A stretch of 61,912 nucleotides of DNA from a bacterium (lineage in GTDB: Bacteria > Patescibacteriota > Minisyncoccia > Phycocordibacterales > JABMNX01): the NCBI GenBank assembly GCA_002687905.1, contig NZBM01000008.1, positions 1-61,912 on the forward strand, read 5' to 3'. The notes under the pieces are model-generated. The model saw only the letters and a list, made by a program, of their open reading frames with translations, made no database searches and had not been told where the DNA came from. Position numbers and translations under genes: made by a program. Shown here one piece after another: positions 5,388 through 47,621 of the stretch; position 1 is the first letter of the stretch; each line of letters begins with the position of its first letter.

Positions 5388-5407
5388 ACCATGCGCTCGT
5401 ATGATCA

Positions 5408-5437
5408 CCCCATTACAAAGCAAAGCTTGTAACGGGG
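5408..5437 (+). repeat. minimal hairpin copy D of the inverted-repeat element family, between the two copies of the leuS start
   Basis: CCCCATTACAA...TTGTAACGGGG (one A-C mismatch); termini resemble copies A-C. Confidence 0.5.
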
Positions 5438-5472
5438 CAAGCCAAAAGATTAAAGAAACATATAAATAAAAA

Positions 5473-7854
5473 ATGCGTTCGTATGACCACAGGAAAATAG
5501 AGGCTAAATGGCAAGAGAAGTGGGAGAAAGAAAAACTATATGAAGTTAAAGATGAAGTAGCGGGACGCAAGAACCGCTACGTTTTGGTTGAATATCCATA
5601 CCCCTCTGGGAATCTTCATATTGGACACTGGTATGCATTTTCTGTGCCTGACATATACGCCCGCGCAAAGAGAATGCAGGGAGAGAATGTTCTCTTTCCA
5701 ATGGGCTTTGACTCCTTTGGTCTTCCTGCAGAAAACGCTGCAATAAAGAATAAAGTAGATCCGAGAGAGTGGACAGAGGAGAATATAAAGACAATGACGA
5801 AGCAGTTAAAGAGTATGGGAAACTCTTTTGATTGGTCGCGAAGACTGGCTGCGTCAGATCCAGATTATTACAAATGGACACAGTGGCTCTTTCTTAAGTT
5901 TCTTGACGCGGGTCTCGCGTATCGCGGGAAGGCGGCAGTTAATTGGGACCCAGTAGACCAGACCGTGCTTGCAAATGAACAAGTTCTTCCAGACGGAACG
6001 GGCGAGCGCTCAGGCGCAAAAGTTGAAAGAAGGTATTTAGAACAGTGGTTTATCCGCATTACAGATTACGCAGATCGTCTCGTTGATGATTTAGAGGTTT
6101 TGGAGTGGCCGGAGCAAATAAAGGAGTCGCAAAGGAACTGGATAGGGAGAAAAAGCGGAGCAGAGATTGATTTTAAAGTCACCGGGACTTCAGAGAAGAT
6201 AAAAGTTTTCACAACAAGACCCGATACTCTCTTTGGTGCAACATACATGGTTCTTGCTCCCGAGCATGAGCTAGCAGAGAAGCTAAAAAATAGTATTTCA
6301 AACTGGTCAAAGGTTACTAAGTATATAAAAGAGGCAGAACTTAAATCTGATATTGATAGAACAGCACTCGATAAAGAAAAAACAGGAGTGCTACTTGAAG
6401 GGGTATCAGCAATTAATCCAGCAAACGAAAGTGAGATACCGGTTTACATCGCTGATTATGTCCTTGCCCACTATGGTACTGGGGCGATTATGGCAGTTCC
6501 CGCACACGATGAGCGTGATCATGAATTTGCAGTGAAATTTGGTATTGAAGAAGTAGAAGTAGTTGAAGGAGGAAACATTCCATACACCGGAGAGGGAATT
6601 CTTAAAAACTCAGGCGAGTTTAATGGAATGGATAATGAAGATGCAAAGATAAAAATAACCGAGCGTGTTGGGGGAGCGCTTACAAACAATTACAAGCTTC
6701 GCGACTGGCTAGTCTCTCGCCAGCGCTACTGGGGTGCGCCAATTCCGGTTGTTTATGATCCAAATGGAAATCCTCATCCTATTCCAGAGGAGCACCTGCC
6801 GTGGCTTTTACCGCAGGACATCAGCTTTGATGTAAAAGGAAAATCGCCACTTAGCACTTCCAAGGAATTTGTAGAACGAACAGAGAGTATCTTTGGGCAG
6901 GGGTGGACCCCAGAGATGGATACTTTCGACACTTTTGTTGATTCTTCCTGGTATTTCTTAAGATATCTTGACCCAAAAAATGAAAGTGACTTCTCAGACA
7001 TAAAGAAACAAAAGAAATGGATGCCGGTTGATATGTACTCTGGTGGCGCGGAGCACACGACTATGCACGTCCTTTATTCTAGGTTTTTCTACAAGGCACT
7101 CTTTGACCTGAAGCTTGTAACCGATAAGGAGCCTTACAAAGTAAGAATGAATAGAGGAATAATTCTTGGAACAGATGGTGCAAAGATGAGTAAAAGCAAA
7201 GGTAATGTCATTGACCCTGACGATCAAGTTAAAAATGTCGGTGCAGATTGTGTGAAAATGTACCTCGCATTTGTTGGACCCTATGGAGAGGTTGGAACAT
7301 ATCCGTGGGATATGGGAGGAATTGCGGGTATCAGACGTTTTCTTGAGAGGGTGTGGGGTGTTTCGGAGAAAGTAGAAGGCACTGAGACAAGTGAGAACGT
7401 TAGAAGAGAGCTTAATAAGACTATAAAAAAGGTGGAAGAGGATATAGACGAATTTAAATTTAACACCGCAATAAGCCAGATGATGATTCTTGTAAACAAA
7501 ATTGAAAAAGAGGGCCCGATATCAAAAGGTGATTTTATGAAATTCCTAAGAGTACTTGCTCCGTTTGCGCCACATTTAACTGAAGAGATATGGGAAGGCA
7601 TTGGCAATAAGAAATCATTACACCTAGATGATTGGCCGATTTATGAGGAGAAGTATCTACAAAGTGAGGAGGTAAAAATAGCTGTTCAGGTAAACGGCAA
7701 AGTGCGGGCAACGATATCTATACCAACAGATTCATCTGAAGAAGAGACTATAAAGGTGGCAAAAAAGGACAATGTGGTTAGCAAGTGGTTAGGGGACAGT
7801 AAGGTTAAAAAACAGATCTATGTTAAAAATAGGCTCATAAACTTCGTCACTTGA
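5473..7854 (+). CDS. leuS: leucyl-tRNA synthetase
   Basis: PYPSGNLHIGH (HIGH), KMSKSKGN (KMSKS), 793 aa. Confidence 0.95.
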   Translation: MRSYDHRKIEAKWQEKWEKEKLYEVKDEVAGRKNRYVLVEYPYPSGNLHIGHWYAFSVPDIYARAKRMQGENVLFPMGFDSFGLPAENAAIKNKVDPREWTEENIKTMTKQLKSMGNSFDWSRRLAASDPDYYKWTQWLFLKFLDAGLAYRGKAAVNWDPVDQTVLANEQVLPDGTGERSGAKVERRYLEQWFIRITDYADRLVDDLEVLEWPEQIKESQRNWIGRKSGAEIDFKVTGTSEKIKVFTTRPDTLFGATYMVLAPEHELAEKLKNSISNWSKVTKYIKEAELKSDIDRTALDKEKTGVLLEGVSAINPANESEIPVYIADYVLAHYGTGAIMAVPAHDERDHEFAVKFGIEEVEVVEGGNIPYTGEGILKNSGEFNGMDNEDAKIKITERVGGALTNNYKLRDWLVSRQRYWGAPIPVVYDPNGNPHPIPEEHLPWLLPQDISFDVKGKSPLSTSKEFVERTESIFGQGWTPEMDTFDTFVDSSWYFLRYLDPKNESDFSDIKKQKKWMPVDMYSGGAEHTTMHVLYSRFFYKALFDLKLVTDKEPYKVRMNRGIILGTDGAKMSKSKGNVIDPDDQVKNVGADCVKMYLAFVGPYGEVGTYPWDMGGIAGIRRFLERVWGVSEKVEGTETSENVRRELNKTIKKVEEDIDEFKFNTAISQMMILVNKIEKEGPISKGDFMKFLRVLAPFAPHLTEEIWEGIGNKKSLHLDDWPIYEEKYLQSEEVKIAVQVNGKVRATISIPTDSSEEETIKVAKKDNVVSKWLGDSKVKKQIYVKNRLINFVT

Positions 7855-23442: not shown

Positions 23443-23667
23443 ATGGAGGAGAATCAAGATAAGGATAAAAACGAGGCCACGCCTGCCGTAGTGGATGAGG
23501 CTCTGCCAAATACTCTTTTTAGGGTAAAGCTTGAAGGAGGTGAGCAGCAGATTGCTTATCTTTCAGGTAAGATGCGAATGCATCGAATTAAGGTCCTTGT
23601 TGGCGATAAAGTGCTCGTAGAAGTTGAGCCATATGGTGGCAAGGGCAGAATTGTGAGGCGCTTATAG
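23443..23667 (+). CDS. infA: translation initiation factor IF-1
   Basis: [13 protein letters not shown]...[20 protein letters not shown]1-like fold signature. Confidence 0.9.
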
Positions 23668-23726
23668 TGCAGATTATTGATTGAGTTATTGAGCCGCACT
23701 CATAAACAGCGCTTTTTTTATATGAA

Positions 23727-23849
23727 TTCCGTTAGAGATTGCAAATTGCGATCGACGGGATATATCTCAAAAGTAAGTAGGAGTATGTAGGTGGTCAGTT
23801 ATAAGAGTAATGAACGGAAGCGACATGTTGCTTCCTATCTCTAACGGGA
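23727..23849 (+). repeat. inverted-repeat element copy A (123 nt, 13-bp terminal stem) between infA and rpmJ
   Basis: 23727-23739 TTCCGTTAGAGAT pairs with 23837-23849 ATCTCTAACGGGA; flanked by direct ATGAA at 23722-23726 and 23849-23853; ends match copy B. Confidence 0.75.
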
Positions 23850-23962
23850 TGAAAGTCAAAACGTCAGTAAAAAAGTTGTGTAAAGATTGCAAAAGCGTTC
23901 GAAGGAAAGGGCGCCTTTATGTAATTTGTGTAAATCCAAGACACAAGCAAAGACAAGGTTAA
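23849..23962 (+). CDS. rpmJ: 50S ribosomal protein L36
   Basis: Not in the ORF track (37 aa): [37 protein letters not shown]; position between infA and rpsM. Confidence 0.88.
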
Positions 23963-36213: not shown

Positions 36214-37272
36214 ATGGTTATAGATATAGTAAAAGTTATAGTGCCGGCTGCTTCGGCATTTTTCATTGGTATAGCCATTACACCGCTTCTTACGCATTAT
36301 TTATATAAATATAAAGCTTGGAAGAGCACGCCCGGAAAAGTAGCCCTAGACGGAAAGGAAGCTGTTGAATTTAATAAGATTCACAAAGAAAGAGAGGGAC
36401 ACACTCCCAGAATGGGAGGGATTGTGATTTGGGGAAGCGTAGTAATAACGACACTAGCCGTTTGGGGGGTTTCTAAATTTTTTCCAACAGAGACTACTAC
36501 TAAATTAGATTTTTTAAGTAGGGACCAGACTTGGATCCCGCTTTTCACTCTTGTATTTGGCGGGGTGGTCGGTTTTGTTAATGACGTTCTTGATATACGT
36601 GGCAAGACAAATGGGTTAGCTCTATCAAAAAGACTATTGGCAATTACCGCAATGGCGACATTTATTGGTTGGTGGTTTTTTGAGAAGCTTGAGATTACCG
36701 CCGTTGGGATTCCTTTTGATGGGGCAATTGATATAGGACTTCTTATAATTCCATTTTTTGTTCTCACAGTTCTGGCACTTTATGCAAGCGGAGTGATAGA
36801 TGGCATAGACGGACTTTCTGGAGGCGTCTTTGTAACGATTTTTCTAGCGTACGCTGGAATCGCCTTTTATCAACAACAGATAAACCTAGCGGCATTTTCT
36901 GCTACTGTTGCAGGTGCAATTCTTGCATTTCTTTGGTTTAATATCCCGCCGGCTAGATTTTGGATGACTGAGACCGGCACAATGAGTCTTACACTCACAA
37001 TTGTCGTAATAGCTTTCATGACAGATAGCCTAGGAGGAGGCTACGGAATAGCCGTGCTTCCAATAATTGCATTTCTTCTTGTTGCAACAGTTGCTTCTGT
37101 GATAATTCAAACTCTCTCAAAGAAATTTAGAGGAAAGAAGGTATTTAAGGTGGCACCGCTCCATCATCATTTTGAAGCAATAGGGTGGCCTGGATATAAA
37201 GTGACGATGCGATACTGGATTCTAAGCATCGTATTTGCGCTCCTAGGGGGTATTATTGCCCTAGCGGGATGA
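36214..37272 (+). CDS. mraY: phospho-N-acetylmuramoyl-pentapeptide transferase
   Basis: TPRMGG, NDVLD/DGIDGL, APLHHHFE motifs. Confidence 0.93.
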   Translation: MVIDIVKVIVPAASAFFIGIAITPLLTHYLYKYKAWKSTPGKVALDGKEAVEFNKIHKEREGHTPRMGGIVIWGSVVITTLAVWGVSKFFPTETTTKLDFLSRDQTWIPLFTLVFGGVVGFVNDVLDIRGKTNGLALSKRLLAITAMATFIGWWFFEKLEITAVGIPFDGAIDIGLLIIPFFVLTVLALYASGVIDGIDGLSGGVFVTIFLAYAGIAFYQQQINLAAFSATVAGAILAFLWFNIPPARFWMTETGTMSLTLTIVVIAFMTDSLGGGYGIAVLPIIAFLLVATVASVIIQTLSKKFRGKKVFKVAPLHHHFEAIGWPGYKVTMRYWILSIVFALLGGIIALAG

Positions 37273-37398
37273 ATCCCGTTGGAGGTTGTAAAGGGTGGTT
37301 AATGACATAACGTATATATGGTAATGCACATTAAGAAAGTAAATTTTACTGGAGTAACAAACGGGAGTGGCTGAGCAGCTTCTTACCTCTAACGGGAT
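37273..37398 (+). repeat. inverted-repeat element copy B (126 nt, 14-bp terminal stem) between mraY and ftsW
   Basis: 37273-37286 ATCCCGTTGGAGGT pairs with 37385-37398 ACCTCTAACGGGAT (one G-U); flanked by direct ATGAA at 37269-37273 and 37397-37401. Confidence 0.75.
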
Positions 37399-38485
37399 GA
37401 AAATAGATAGGACACTCTTAATAATTACGATAACCCTGGTTGTAGCAGGTTTTTTTATATTTACCTCCGCCTCATTAGGGCTTCTTGCAAGGGAAGGAGC
37501 TAGGTTTTCTTCGGTGGCATTTAATCAGATATTTCTAGGTATGTTATTGGGGTCGGCCATTCTTTTTTTGACTTCACGTATTCGCTATAGAAAATGGAGA
37601 AAATATGCATTTGTGCTTTTCATAACTTCAATAGCCACAGCACTACTTGTATTCGTTCCCGGTTTAGGACTTGAGGCAGGTGGTGCTAAAAGGTGGATTC
37701 TTTTTGGTCCAGTGTCATTTCAACCTGCCGAGTTTTTAAAGATTGCGTACGTAATTTACTTAGCAGCGTACCTAACAGGAAATCGCTCTCAGACTACGAG
37801 AATCACGCACGGACTACTTCCTTTCCTTGGTATTACTGCGGCCGCTGCAATTCCTCTTATTCTTCAGCCTGATACAGGAACTCTACTTGTAATACTTTCA
37901 GCTGGGACTGCTATGTTTATCGCGGCCGGAGCGAGAGCAAGAGATGTTCTAACGATAGCTGCTGTACCAGTTATTGGAATAACAATCCTTGCGGCTATAA
38001 GACCATATGTTCGTGAAAGACTTCTTACTTTTTTCAATCCTGCTACTGATCCTTTAGGCTCAAGCTATCAGATACAGCAATCACTAATATCTATTGGTTC
38101 CGGTCAATGGTCTGGGCGAGGTTTTGGTCAGAGCGTACAGAAATTCAACTTTCTGCCAGAGCCGATAGGAGATTCTATTTTTGCGGTATTTTCAGAGGAA
38201 TTCGGTTTTATAGGCGCAAGTCTATTAATTGCTCTTTTCCTGGCTTTTGCCTTTAGGGGCTTAAAAATAGCCTCTCAAGCGCCAGATTACTTTGGTGGAC
38301 TGCTTGTCGTGGGGATTGTTATACTAATTGTGTCACAGTCGTTTATAAATATAGCCTCAATGTTAGCAGTTCTTCCGCTTACGGGGCTACCACTAGTCTT
38401 TATCAGTCACGGTGGCACAGCGCTTTTATTTGCTCTGGCAAGTATTGGAATAGTGCTGAATGTTTCAAAATATAGAAAATCATGA
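37397..38485 (+). CDS. ftsW: peptidoglycan glycosyltransferase FtsW/RodA (SEDS family)
   Basis: 10-TM SEDS pattern, QPAEFLKI, PDTGT, LPEPIGDSIFA, GLPLVFISHGG. ATG 37397 preferred; GTG 37367 is the alternative. Confidence 0.85.
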   Translation: MKIDRTLLIITITLVVAGFFIFTSASLGLLAREGARFSSVAFNQIFLGMLLGSAILFLTSRIRYRKWRKYAFVLFITSIATALLVFVPGLGLEAGGAKRWILFGPVSFQPAEFLKIAYVIYLAAYLTGNRSQTTRITHGLLPFLGITAAAAIPLILQPDTGTLLVILSAGTAMFIAAGARARDVLTIAAVPVIGITILAAIRPYVRERLLTFFNPATDPLGSSYQIQQSLISIGSGQWSGRGFGQSVQKFNFLPEPIGDSIFAVFSEEFGFIGASLLIALFLAFAFRGLKIASQAPDYFGGLLVVGIVILIVSQSFINIASMLAVLPLTGLPLVFISHGGTALLFALASIGIVLNVSKYRKS

Positions 38486-47545: not shown

Positions 47546-47621
47546 CCCCCACACCTTTCATTGCAAAGCTGGTCTCTTAAAAACCAGCGCTCGCAGAGCA
47601 TTACAATGAAAGGTGTGGGGG
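47546..47621. repeat. 18-bp perfect inverted repeat enclosing 40 nt, in the ctp/corA divergent region
   Basis: 47546-47563 CCCCCACACCTTTCATTG = reverse complement of 47604-47621; inner hairpin GCTGGT...ACCAGC at 47568-47588. Confidence 0.9.

Follow-up and report, generated by a model that had tools for sequence, protein, structure and literature searches.

What occupies the junction between infA and rpmJ in a Patescibacteria genome, where a 123-nt inverted repeat extends onto the first base of the rpmJ start codon? The junction lies in a 61,912-nt stretch of DNA (contig NZBM01000008.1 of assembly GCA_002687905.1), here called the window, which corresponds to contig C8 of a 591,505-bp assembly in 18 contigs. 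An earlier sequence-only reading had described an inserted, repeated, inverted-repeat element placed exactly on the start codon. This description is supported, and its view of the repeat as a mobile element is borne out by family copies, empty sites and a covarying stem. We consider it probable that the repeat, termed element A, is a non-autonomous copy, resembling MITEs (miniature inverted-repeat transposable elements), of a very small mobile element of the Patescibacteria. The full-length form of this element measures ~273-282 bp and consists of 13-bp terminal repeats and a single gene for a GIY-YIG protein of ~90 residues. Element A is best read as selfish DNA that is tolerated at rpmJ, not as a regulator of rpmJ.

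The ends of element A are defined to the base. A spacer of 181 nt separates the end of infA (23667) from the rpmJ ATG (23849-23851). Within it, two 13-bp arms, with 12 Watson-Crick pairs and one T-G pair, form a stem that ends on the A of the rpmJ ATG, and the pentamer ATGAA is located on both sides of the element (23722-23726 and 23849-23853). The spacer length, the stem and the bracketing pentamers had all been reported from the bases and are confirmed base for base; the boundaries 23727-23849 are exact as well, given that the ends are read as T-CCCG...CGGG-A. The RNA fold of A reaches -41 kcal/mol (z = -4.2, equalled by 0 of 200 shuffles) and is composed of the terminal stem and an internal hairpin at 23816-23835. 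This hairpin is a remnant of the long-range inner stem of the full-length element. The displaced native rpmJ ATG at the left end opens a short open reading frame (ORF) in A; in full-length relatives, the same left ATG opens the nuclease ORF, which begins MNPVRD.

We compared the orthologous infA-rpmJ junction in 30 genomes; 38 of 40 relatives have an infA homologue. The rpmJ site of G001, a genome of the same genus, is empty and reads agcgctttttttgtATGAAAGTT, and the empty site TATATGAAAGTC that had been predicted from element A is found there. An empty-allele or excision junction at A itself would read TTTATATGAA followed directly by AGTC. The element is without counterpart in 27 of the 30 spacers examined. 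At the rpmJ ATG, genome G008 has an empty site and G006, its relative, a filled one, with 11 nt before and 14 nt after the site identical; G023, from a third lineage, carries an rpmJ copy whose arms are different (TCCCGATAGTGAC). Since the three rpmJ copies have unrelated interiors, they represent independent insertions at one site. G001 is also empty at mraY-ftsW and at pheS-pheT, and its topA ATG holds a short copy that is 74% identical to the topA copy of the genome studied here. Since G001 is empty at rpmJ, ftsW and pheT but shares the topA copy, the element was inserted and does not constitute a lineage-specific leader, an alternative that the sequence-only reading had raised against itself. 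Element A is likewise 74% identical, over its whole length, to the topA copy of its own genome, which makes it a later copy of an already short element and means that the short form has multiplied. On these alignments, A arose in this lineage after the split from the sister species, from the short-element lineage of the older topA copy.

The native part of the same spacer has a feature of its own. At 23668-23721 and in the loci L002-L012, a conserved gattgagtt...agcgc(a/t)tttttt ends 2-15 nt 5' of the rpmJ ATG. This motif may represent either a native leader or a signal of the terminator type and has no relation to the element.

The sequence-only reading had noted two copies and suggested a search for more. 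A whole-genome search identified seven full copies, and copies of the family occur in relatives too. A loose search with both arms and two mismatches yielded noise only, and exact cores were used instead. All seven copies are oriented with their downstream gene, and six of the seven, comprising all the short ones, end on its ATG. The second copy noted earlier, copy B at 37274-37397, is real: its left end matches that of A at 20 of 24 positions, the right 24 nt are 92% identical and the interior ~55%. The compensatory change noted between the two copies is also present, with GAGAT/ATCTC in A and GAGGT/ACCTC in B (A-T to G-C), and the stem covaries. A solitary sequence resembling the right end, TATATCTAACGGGATGAAAAATG, was observed at C14:19877-19895 on the minus strand, next to a possible start of a gene and with no left arm found. 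Either a degenerate eighth copy or a chance resemblance would account for it; an element remnant could not be demonstrated.

How does the element come to lie on start codons? At ATG sites, a 5-bp duplication (ATGAA) and a 4-bp duplication (TGAA) are identical readings, and only sites with other bases discriminate between them. Among 49 copies from this genome and its relatives, 32 have a 4-bp duplication, including the non-ATG sites TTGA, TACA and TTCG, and in 39 the last element base together with the next two host bases forms ATG. Because the non-ATG sites show a 4-bp duplication, the A of the rebuilt start codon belongs to the element. A set of 87 short copies from named Patescibacteria assemblies provides a similar picture: a 4-bp duplication is found in 61 (TGAA 38, TGGA 14, TGAG 7), and the left duplicate is preceded by A in 65 copies, by G in four and by T in two but never by C, as the three usual start codons would give. 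In 79 of these 87 copies, an ORF of 60 aa or more starts at the rebuilt ATG, compared to 27% of control ATGs. These comparisons show that insertion occurs between bases 1 and 2 of a start codon (N^TGRA) with duplication of 4 bp, usually TGAA, and that the last base of the element, A, restores the host start codon as ATG. The genome contains 3357 ATGRA words, with ~173-265 at gene starts, 295 in intergenic positions and the remainder within genes; the word alone would not predict that all copies sit on start codons in one orientation.

Two further observations concern the target. At L086 (G261), L068 (G245) and L093 (G236), G or T precedes the left duplicate (GTGAA, CTTG) and ATG is found on the right, and a GTG or TTG start appears to have been turned into ATG by the insertion. 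Tandem or abutting copies are seen at L034 (123-165), L035 (1744-1890), L150 (5472-5713) and L151 (6578-6911). Such arrangements are expected if each insertion regenerates the target ATGAA at both ends.

The coding parent of A is represented by 11 full-length copies of 273-282 nt, namely copy c2 of this genome and 10 copies from relatives, which share the arms and the inner stem with the short copies. In seven of the 11, a canonical ORF runs from the displaced host ATG on the left (ATG AAT CCC GTT AGA GAT = MNPVRD) across the entire element to its stop codon, the TGA of the duplicated TGAA within the right GGGATGA, and thereby overlaps the rebuilt ATG (ATGA). An internal ATG just 5' of a (W/F)YTY motif is likewise found in seven of the 11. 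The C-terminus RLKRFLSLTG is essentially invariant, with F, L, S, L and T present in 35 of 35 aligned homologues drawn from at least 1090 protein clusters; FLSLTG is invariant because the DNA of the right arm encodes it. The inner stem measures 12-14 bp and is formed by the LRKR(F/L)K codons (~nt 90-105), which pair with the LKRFL codons 1 nt before the 14-nt right arm. Both stems covary across the 11 aligned copies: 95.6% of cells are paired and nine pairs have changed in both partners, a level attained by 0 of 500 shuffles, and some of the compensatory changes alter amino acids on both sides. Positions 1-13 of the terminal stem pair across 183 copies. The short copies are whole elements of 112-133 nt with duplications. 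They keep both arms, and the inner stem persists in them as a local hairpin, its loop 3-8 nt long; the bases of this hairpin differ between copies although pairing is preserved, and the remaining interior of ~75 nt drifts freely. The loss of ~150 nt from between the halves of the inner stem is the best explanation for copies such as A and B.

The family is widespread. The core CCGTTAGAG-N60-300-CTCTAACGG is present in 79 of 400 genomes and in 57 of 222 genera of the order, with at most 18 copies per genome, compared to two genomes matched by a reversed-pattern control, and element lengths cluster at ~112-125 nt and ~273-282 nt. An exact-pattern scan of public genomes returned at least 80 loci; the matches listed come mostly from Parcubacteria/Paceibacteria, Patescibacteria or Saccharibacteria, and the lineage labels among them include Wolfe-, Kaiser-, Yanofsky-, Nomura-, Harrison- and Taylorbacteria and others.

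The ORFs of the full-length elements encode 89-94 aa with Pfam GIY-YIG as the only domain; for the 89-aa ORF of c2, the match has E = 3.9e-14. NCBIfam gives only a weak, sub-threshold match to group I intron endonucleases. An AlphaFold model of the nuclease (pLDDT 94) is most similar to UPF0213 BH0048 (1zg2, E = 4e-5), followed by the nuclease domain of Slx1 (TM 0.60-0.66), a structure-selective nuclease; I-TevI and UvrC are far weaker matches. Database names for the protein are "GIY-YIG nuclease family protein", "putative endonuclease" and, erroneously, "excinuclease ABC subunit C".

Besides c2, the genome encodes three small GIY-YIG genes, each bracketed by its own, different inverted repeats. 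Gene-less occurrences of one arm type, CCCCACACCTTT, lie at 47546-47621 of the window and on contig C5 (C5:32542-32680), which looks like a second nuclease/arm subfamily with short copies of its own. Each nuclease subfamily would therefore possess its own arms and short copies. A third GIY-YIG subfamily lies directly 5' of a tRNA gene (C5:16038-16515), and locus L045 of G039, a distant relative, has the same layout. A copy of the initial 9-11 nt of the tRNA, GGGCGGTTAGC, is present on the left side, so that this subfamily would target the tRNA start and make a longer duplication. At 5391-5490 of the window, the 18 nt with which leuS begins, ATGCGYTCGTATGAYCAC, are present in two copies 82 nt apart, on either side of a 30-nt palindrome (CCCCATTACAAAGC...GCTTGTAACGGGG). 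The arms of the palindrome resemble those of the family, which might mark a relic that has been strongly reduced and carries a long duplication.

What moves the element? We tentatively postulate, at somewhat less than an even chance, that the ~90-residue Slx1-like GIY-YIG nuclease is itself the transposase, that it recognises its own folded ends and inserts at base 1/2 of start codons, and that the gene-less 120-nt copies are moved in trans. By analogy with Ssn and Slx1, the cognate nuclease (here that of c2, C7:22097-22373) would recognise the folded arms, probably on single-stranded or extruded DNA, and would cut at the base of the stem, thereby moving full and short copies. Recognition of the arms is suggested because the nuclease is the sole cargo, because arms and nuclease co-vary by subfamily, and because the Ssn relatives bind a stem and cut beside it. 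In canonical copies, the displaced host start, together with its initiation context, opens the nuclease ORF, the stop of which overlaps the rebuilt ATG. Ribosomes starting at the left ATG, or finishing mraY in the case of B, may melt the left arm and free the rebuilt ATG, such that rpmJ is translated.

The closest experimental parallel is the Ssn/NTS system (Chenal et al. 2025, Nat Commun, PMC11893778), in which SsnA binds a single-stranded-DNA stem and cuts just upstream, and still cuts when the stem halves are on separate strands or when long extensions are placed at the loop position. This tolerance matches the geometry offered by the two distant arms of the element. Both systems feature single-domain GIY-YIG proteins of ~90-95 aa, a gene bracketed by stem-forming sequence, many repeats dispersed near genes, and nuclease subfamilies that each have a cognate repeat (PMC11893778). 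They differ in that the brackets of the element are two halves of one 13-bp stem, whereas those of Ssn are self-contained hairpins of ~30 nt (ATTCCC-N8-GGGAAT type), in that its dispersed copies are entire elements of 112-133 nt instead of solitary hairpins, and in that the element shows a 4-bp duplication, filled and empty sites, a start-codon position, and a start and stop shared with the host. The nearest solved structures of the element nuclease are, in contrast, UPF0213 BH0048 and Slx1. The authors of the Ssn study remark that the NTS-ssnA-NTS layout resembles an insertion sequence; mobility, duplications and start-codon sites are not shown there, and neither Patescibacteria nor start codons are mentioned (PMC11893778).

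A mobile family does not have to be moved by the nuclease it carries. Another enzyme, for example an HUH enzyme of the Y1 type, might move it, or the copies might spread by nuclease breaks that are repaired from filled copies (homing), with the nuclease as cargo or as a homing endonuclease. We regard this as unlikely. The genome does contain two Y1_Tnp ORFs, 15 of 18 high-copy genomes have such genes and five of the 18 are without a close cognate nuclease, and the starts of rpmJ, pheT and topA are reused across lineages, as expected for homing. The elements also resemble IS200/IS605, PATE and REP/RAYT in their very small size, their reliance on hairpins, a short specific target word and palindromic non-autonomous derivatives, and a single-strand mechanism, as in IS200/IS605, is plausible. 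Elements of the HUH Y1 kind, however, rely on a HUH tyrosine enzyme, have subterminal hairpins and are not known to leave a target duplication, whereas here one stem runs from end to end and a 4-bp duplication is the rule. Y1 genes are common in the order but do not track the element, as no Y1 match is found in three high-copy genomes (18, 10 and 8 copies). Homing, in turn, is difficult to reconcile with same-gene copies in different lineages that have unrelated interiors, while A resembles copies of its own genome, a pattern indicating spread within genomes and not homing of alleles; moreover, the nuclease is without a DNA-binding domain of the I-TevI or Seg kind. A gene wedged between or onto host genes, the use of host expression signals and recurrent junctions recall Seg of phage T4 and the GIY-YIG ORFs of fungal mitochondria, the latter being fused in frame to host genes. 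Those enzymes possess domains for DNA binding, home to a single allele and are not known to leave inverted repeats or duplications, whereas copies of the element are found at many unrelated genes of one genome and include gene-less derivatives. That each nuclease subfamily has its own arms further argues against a mover other than the nuclease. No DDE transposase that could act as the mover was found for the two families to which the search was limited, PF01609 and PF00665: neither gave a match in the genome, while control genomes responded.

Could A instead serve the gene on which it sits? A cis-acting RNA that regulates rpmJ translation through two mutually exclusive helices, hiding or exposing the start, had been suggested from the sequence and is very improbable. 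The transcript folds well (-41 kcal/mol, z = -4.2), the ATG lies within the 13-bp stem, and this stem covaries. A Shine-Dalgarno sequence is not enriched upstream of starts (11.3% for 265 long ORFs vs 10.2% at random positions), so structure at the start codon should matter. Against this, the element is missing from the rpmJ spacer of the sister species and from most of the spacers examined, precedes unrelated genes elsewhere, and has a non-conserved interior. Rfam searches of the window with gathering thresholds, and of 23660-23900 with E <= 1, matched nothing except a tRNA elsewhere. Non-Watson-Crick pairs in the terminal stem of the 183 copies comprise 12 G-T and 11 A-C pairs. This balance indicates that pairing or recognition takes place symmetrically in the DNA and is not RNA-specific; with no wobble bias, and hence no sign of selection on the RNA strand only, the stem agrees with inverted repeats of DNA and not with a structure of RNA only. 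The sequences on which the sequence-only reading had based its more specific suggestions are present as written, namely AACGGAA (23813-23819), an in-frame ATG at 23810 (50-aa ORF) and TTGCAA-16 nt-TATATC, but the suggestions are not supported. The alternative helix via AACGGAA is not conserved and lies outside the minimum-free-energy fold; the motif sits 5' of the internal hairpin and overlaps it, and this alternative pairing partner corresponds to the ...LRKR codons of the full-length nuclease. A consensus promoter scan was negative for the outward promoter, which other copies lack, and the ATG proposed for an N-terminal extension of L36 is found in 0 of 6 other copies.

An improbable variant is that short copies have been co-opted as translational couplers for the downstream essential gene, in a host without Shine-Dalgarno pairing, and are not purely selfish relics. 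An ORF that is open from the left start across the whole element occurs in 20 of 66 short copies elsewhere, compared to 6.2 +/- 2.4 for shuffled interiors and to 1 and 0 in the other frames. It ends with TAA 4 nt before the host ATG in 18 copies and with an overlapping TGA in two. The element length is a multiple of 3 in 33 of the 66. This enrichment suggests selection for translation through the element, and the arms and hairpin of the topA copy have been kept since the genus split. However, none of the six short copies of this genome, A and B included, is open throughout, the sister genomes manage without an element at these genes, and the openness could come from the parental nuclease ORF. 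As a separate observation on initiation in this host, an A/T-rich signal is found upstream of the starts of the 265 long ORFs, with T at -12, A at -11 and T at -7; its appearance is that of a -10 box positioned to give leaderless transcripts.

Several observations weigh against our preferred reading of A as a short derivative of a nuclease-moved element that returns the host start codon. A close cognate nuclease (E <= 1e-15) is absent from five of 18 high-copy genomes, and copies thus persist, or perhaps move, without it. No duplication is seen in 10 of the 49 and 16 of the 87 copies, and among the others the length ranges from 2 to 7 bp. Purifying selection against other sites, acting together with the ATGRA word, could account for part of the start-codon pattern. 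The interiors of short copies have no significant similarity to the coding interior of c2 in local alignments with shuffles, except for B (8 of 300 shuffles as good), and MAFFT alignment of short with long copies misplaced the interiors; the proposed link by deletion is drawn from the ends, the inner hairpin and the overall architecture. Copy c2 is itself atypical. It has no left ATG and no visible duplication, and its closing pair is G...C instead of T...A, giving the pheS stop codon TAG and CTG in place of ATG. It uses its own ATG, a downstream TGA overlaps the pheT start, and c2 is, by this comparison, decayed at its ends. Finally, the mini-ORF of A stops 58 nt before the rpmJ ATG, and the coupling idea is therefore weakest for A itself.

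Bacterial MITEs such as Correia, ERIC and RUP have terminal inverted repeats and a short duplication, measure ~100-150 bp and contain no gene, and have a coding parent. Element A exhibits terminal repeats, a duplication, empty-site polymorphism and a coding parent with the same ends, and, like Correia, ERIC and RUP, it occurs in several copies per genome and is co-transcribed with neighbouring genes. It differs in that the parent is only ~275 bp long and encodes a GIY-YIG nuclease instead of a DDE transposase, and in that insertion takes place at base 1/2 of the start codon, in one orientation, with the codon rebuilt. To our knowledge, the parent element is unlike any known insertion-sequence family. 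No description of it was found in the literature on GIY-YIG proteins with inverted repeats, start codons or Patescibacteria, or on insertion sequences and MITEs at start codons, and the family, which parasitises start codons, is apparently undescribed. The features of the window and of the other contigs are collected in Table 1.

Table 1. Positions of element copies, their parts and neighbouring genes. Positions without a contig label are those of the window; labels such as C7 denote other contigs of the assembly.
Feature	Position	Strand	Context or basis
infA, 74 aa	23443..23667	+	ORF list; upstream gene, same operon as rpmJ
Mini-ORF from displaced native rpmJ ATG, stop TAG 23788-23790	23722..23790	+	codons 2-6 cross the left arm
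Left TGAA of A, 4-bp target-site duplication	23723..23726	+	single ATGAA in the G001 empty site
Element A, 123 nt, gene-less non-autonomous copy, T to A	23727..23849	+	downstream rpmJ; without counterpart in the same-genus orthologous spacer
Left terminal inverted repeat of A, TTCCGTTAGAGAT	23727..23739	+	family consensus TCCCGTTAGAGAT
Internal hairpin of A, GGAAGCGA-CATG-TTGCTTCC	23816..23835	+	1 nt 5' of the right arm
Right terminal inverted repeat of A, ATCTCTAACGGGA	23837..23849	+	final base is the A of the rebuilt rpmJ ATG
rpmJ, ribosomal protein L36, 37 aa, intact	23849..23962	+	ORF list; orthologues aligned
Right TGAA of A, target-site duplication	23850..23853	+	sequence
Left TGAA of B; includes the mraY-like stop codon TGA 37270-37272	37270..37273	+	sequence
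Copy B, 124 nt, non-autonomous, junction of mraY-like gene and ftsW	37274..37397	+	last A rebuilds the ftsW ATG 37397-37399
Right TGAA of B	37398..37401	+	sequence
76-nt palindromic element, 18-bp perfect arms CCCCCACACCTTTCATTG, upstream of corA	47546..47621	.	arms match those around GIY-YIG gene C12:4962-5264
Copy c1	C7:18078	+	downstream rpmE
Copy c2, 277 nt, full-length, GIY-YIG ORF, between pheS and pheT	C7:22097-22373	+	downstream pheT, ATG 7 nt away
Copy c5	C10:14822	-	downstream proS
Copy c6	C10:19475	-	downstream holB-like
Copy c7	C16:20310	+	downstream topA
Y1_Tnp (IS200/RAYT-like HUH) ORF, ~230 aa	C7:963-1646	-	intact HxH and Y motifs; near the other contig end
Y1_Tnp (IS200/RAYT-like HUH) ORF, ~230 aa	C7:61091-61783	+	intact HxH and Y motifs; near contig end

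If the nuclease is the transposase, it would represent a new mechanistic class beside DDE, DEDD, HUH, serine, tyrosine and Cas1 enzymes, and ~275 bp would be the size of the smallest autonomous mobile element known. A single GIY-YIG domain of ~90 residues would then be sufficient for transposition, and the ~120-nt substrate would make a complete biochemical and structural dissection feasible. The nuclease would be expressed from the host start codon, and the rebuilt ATG would be returned by ATGA stop/start coupling. In a dense genome (89% coding), this amounts to a selfish-DNA strategy composed of a seat on the start codon, borrowed initiation, a returned ATG, and a stop/start overlap that avoids polar effects. 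For annotation, the family places 13-bp stems over the starts of essential genes (ftsW, topA, proS, rpmJ) and creates spurious N-terminal extensions and mini-ORFs. The same copies provide a natural experiment on initiation at a structured start codon without Shine-Dalgarno pairing, and cognate nuclease/stem pairs of differing specificity could enlarge the Ssn-type toolbox for single-stranded DNA.

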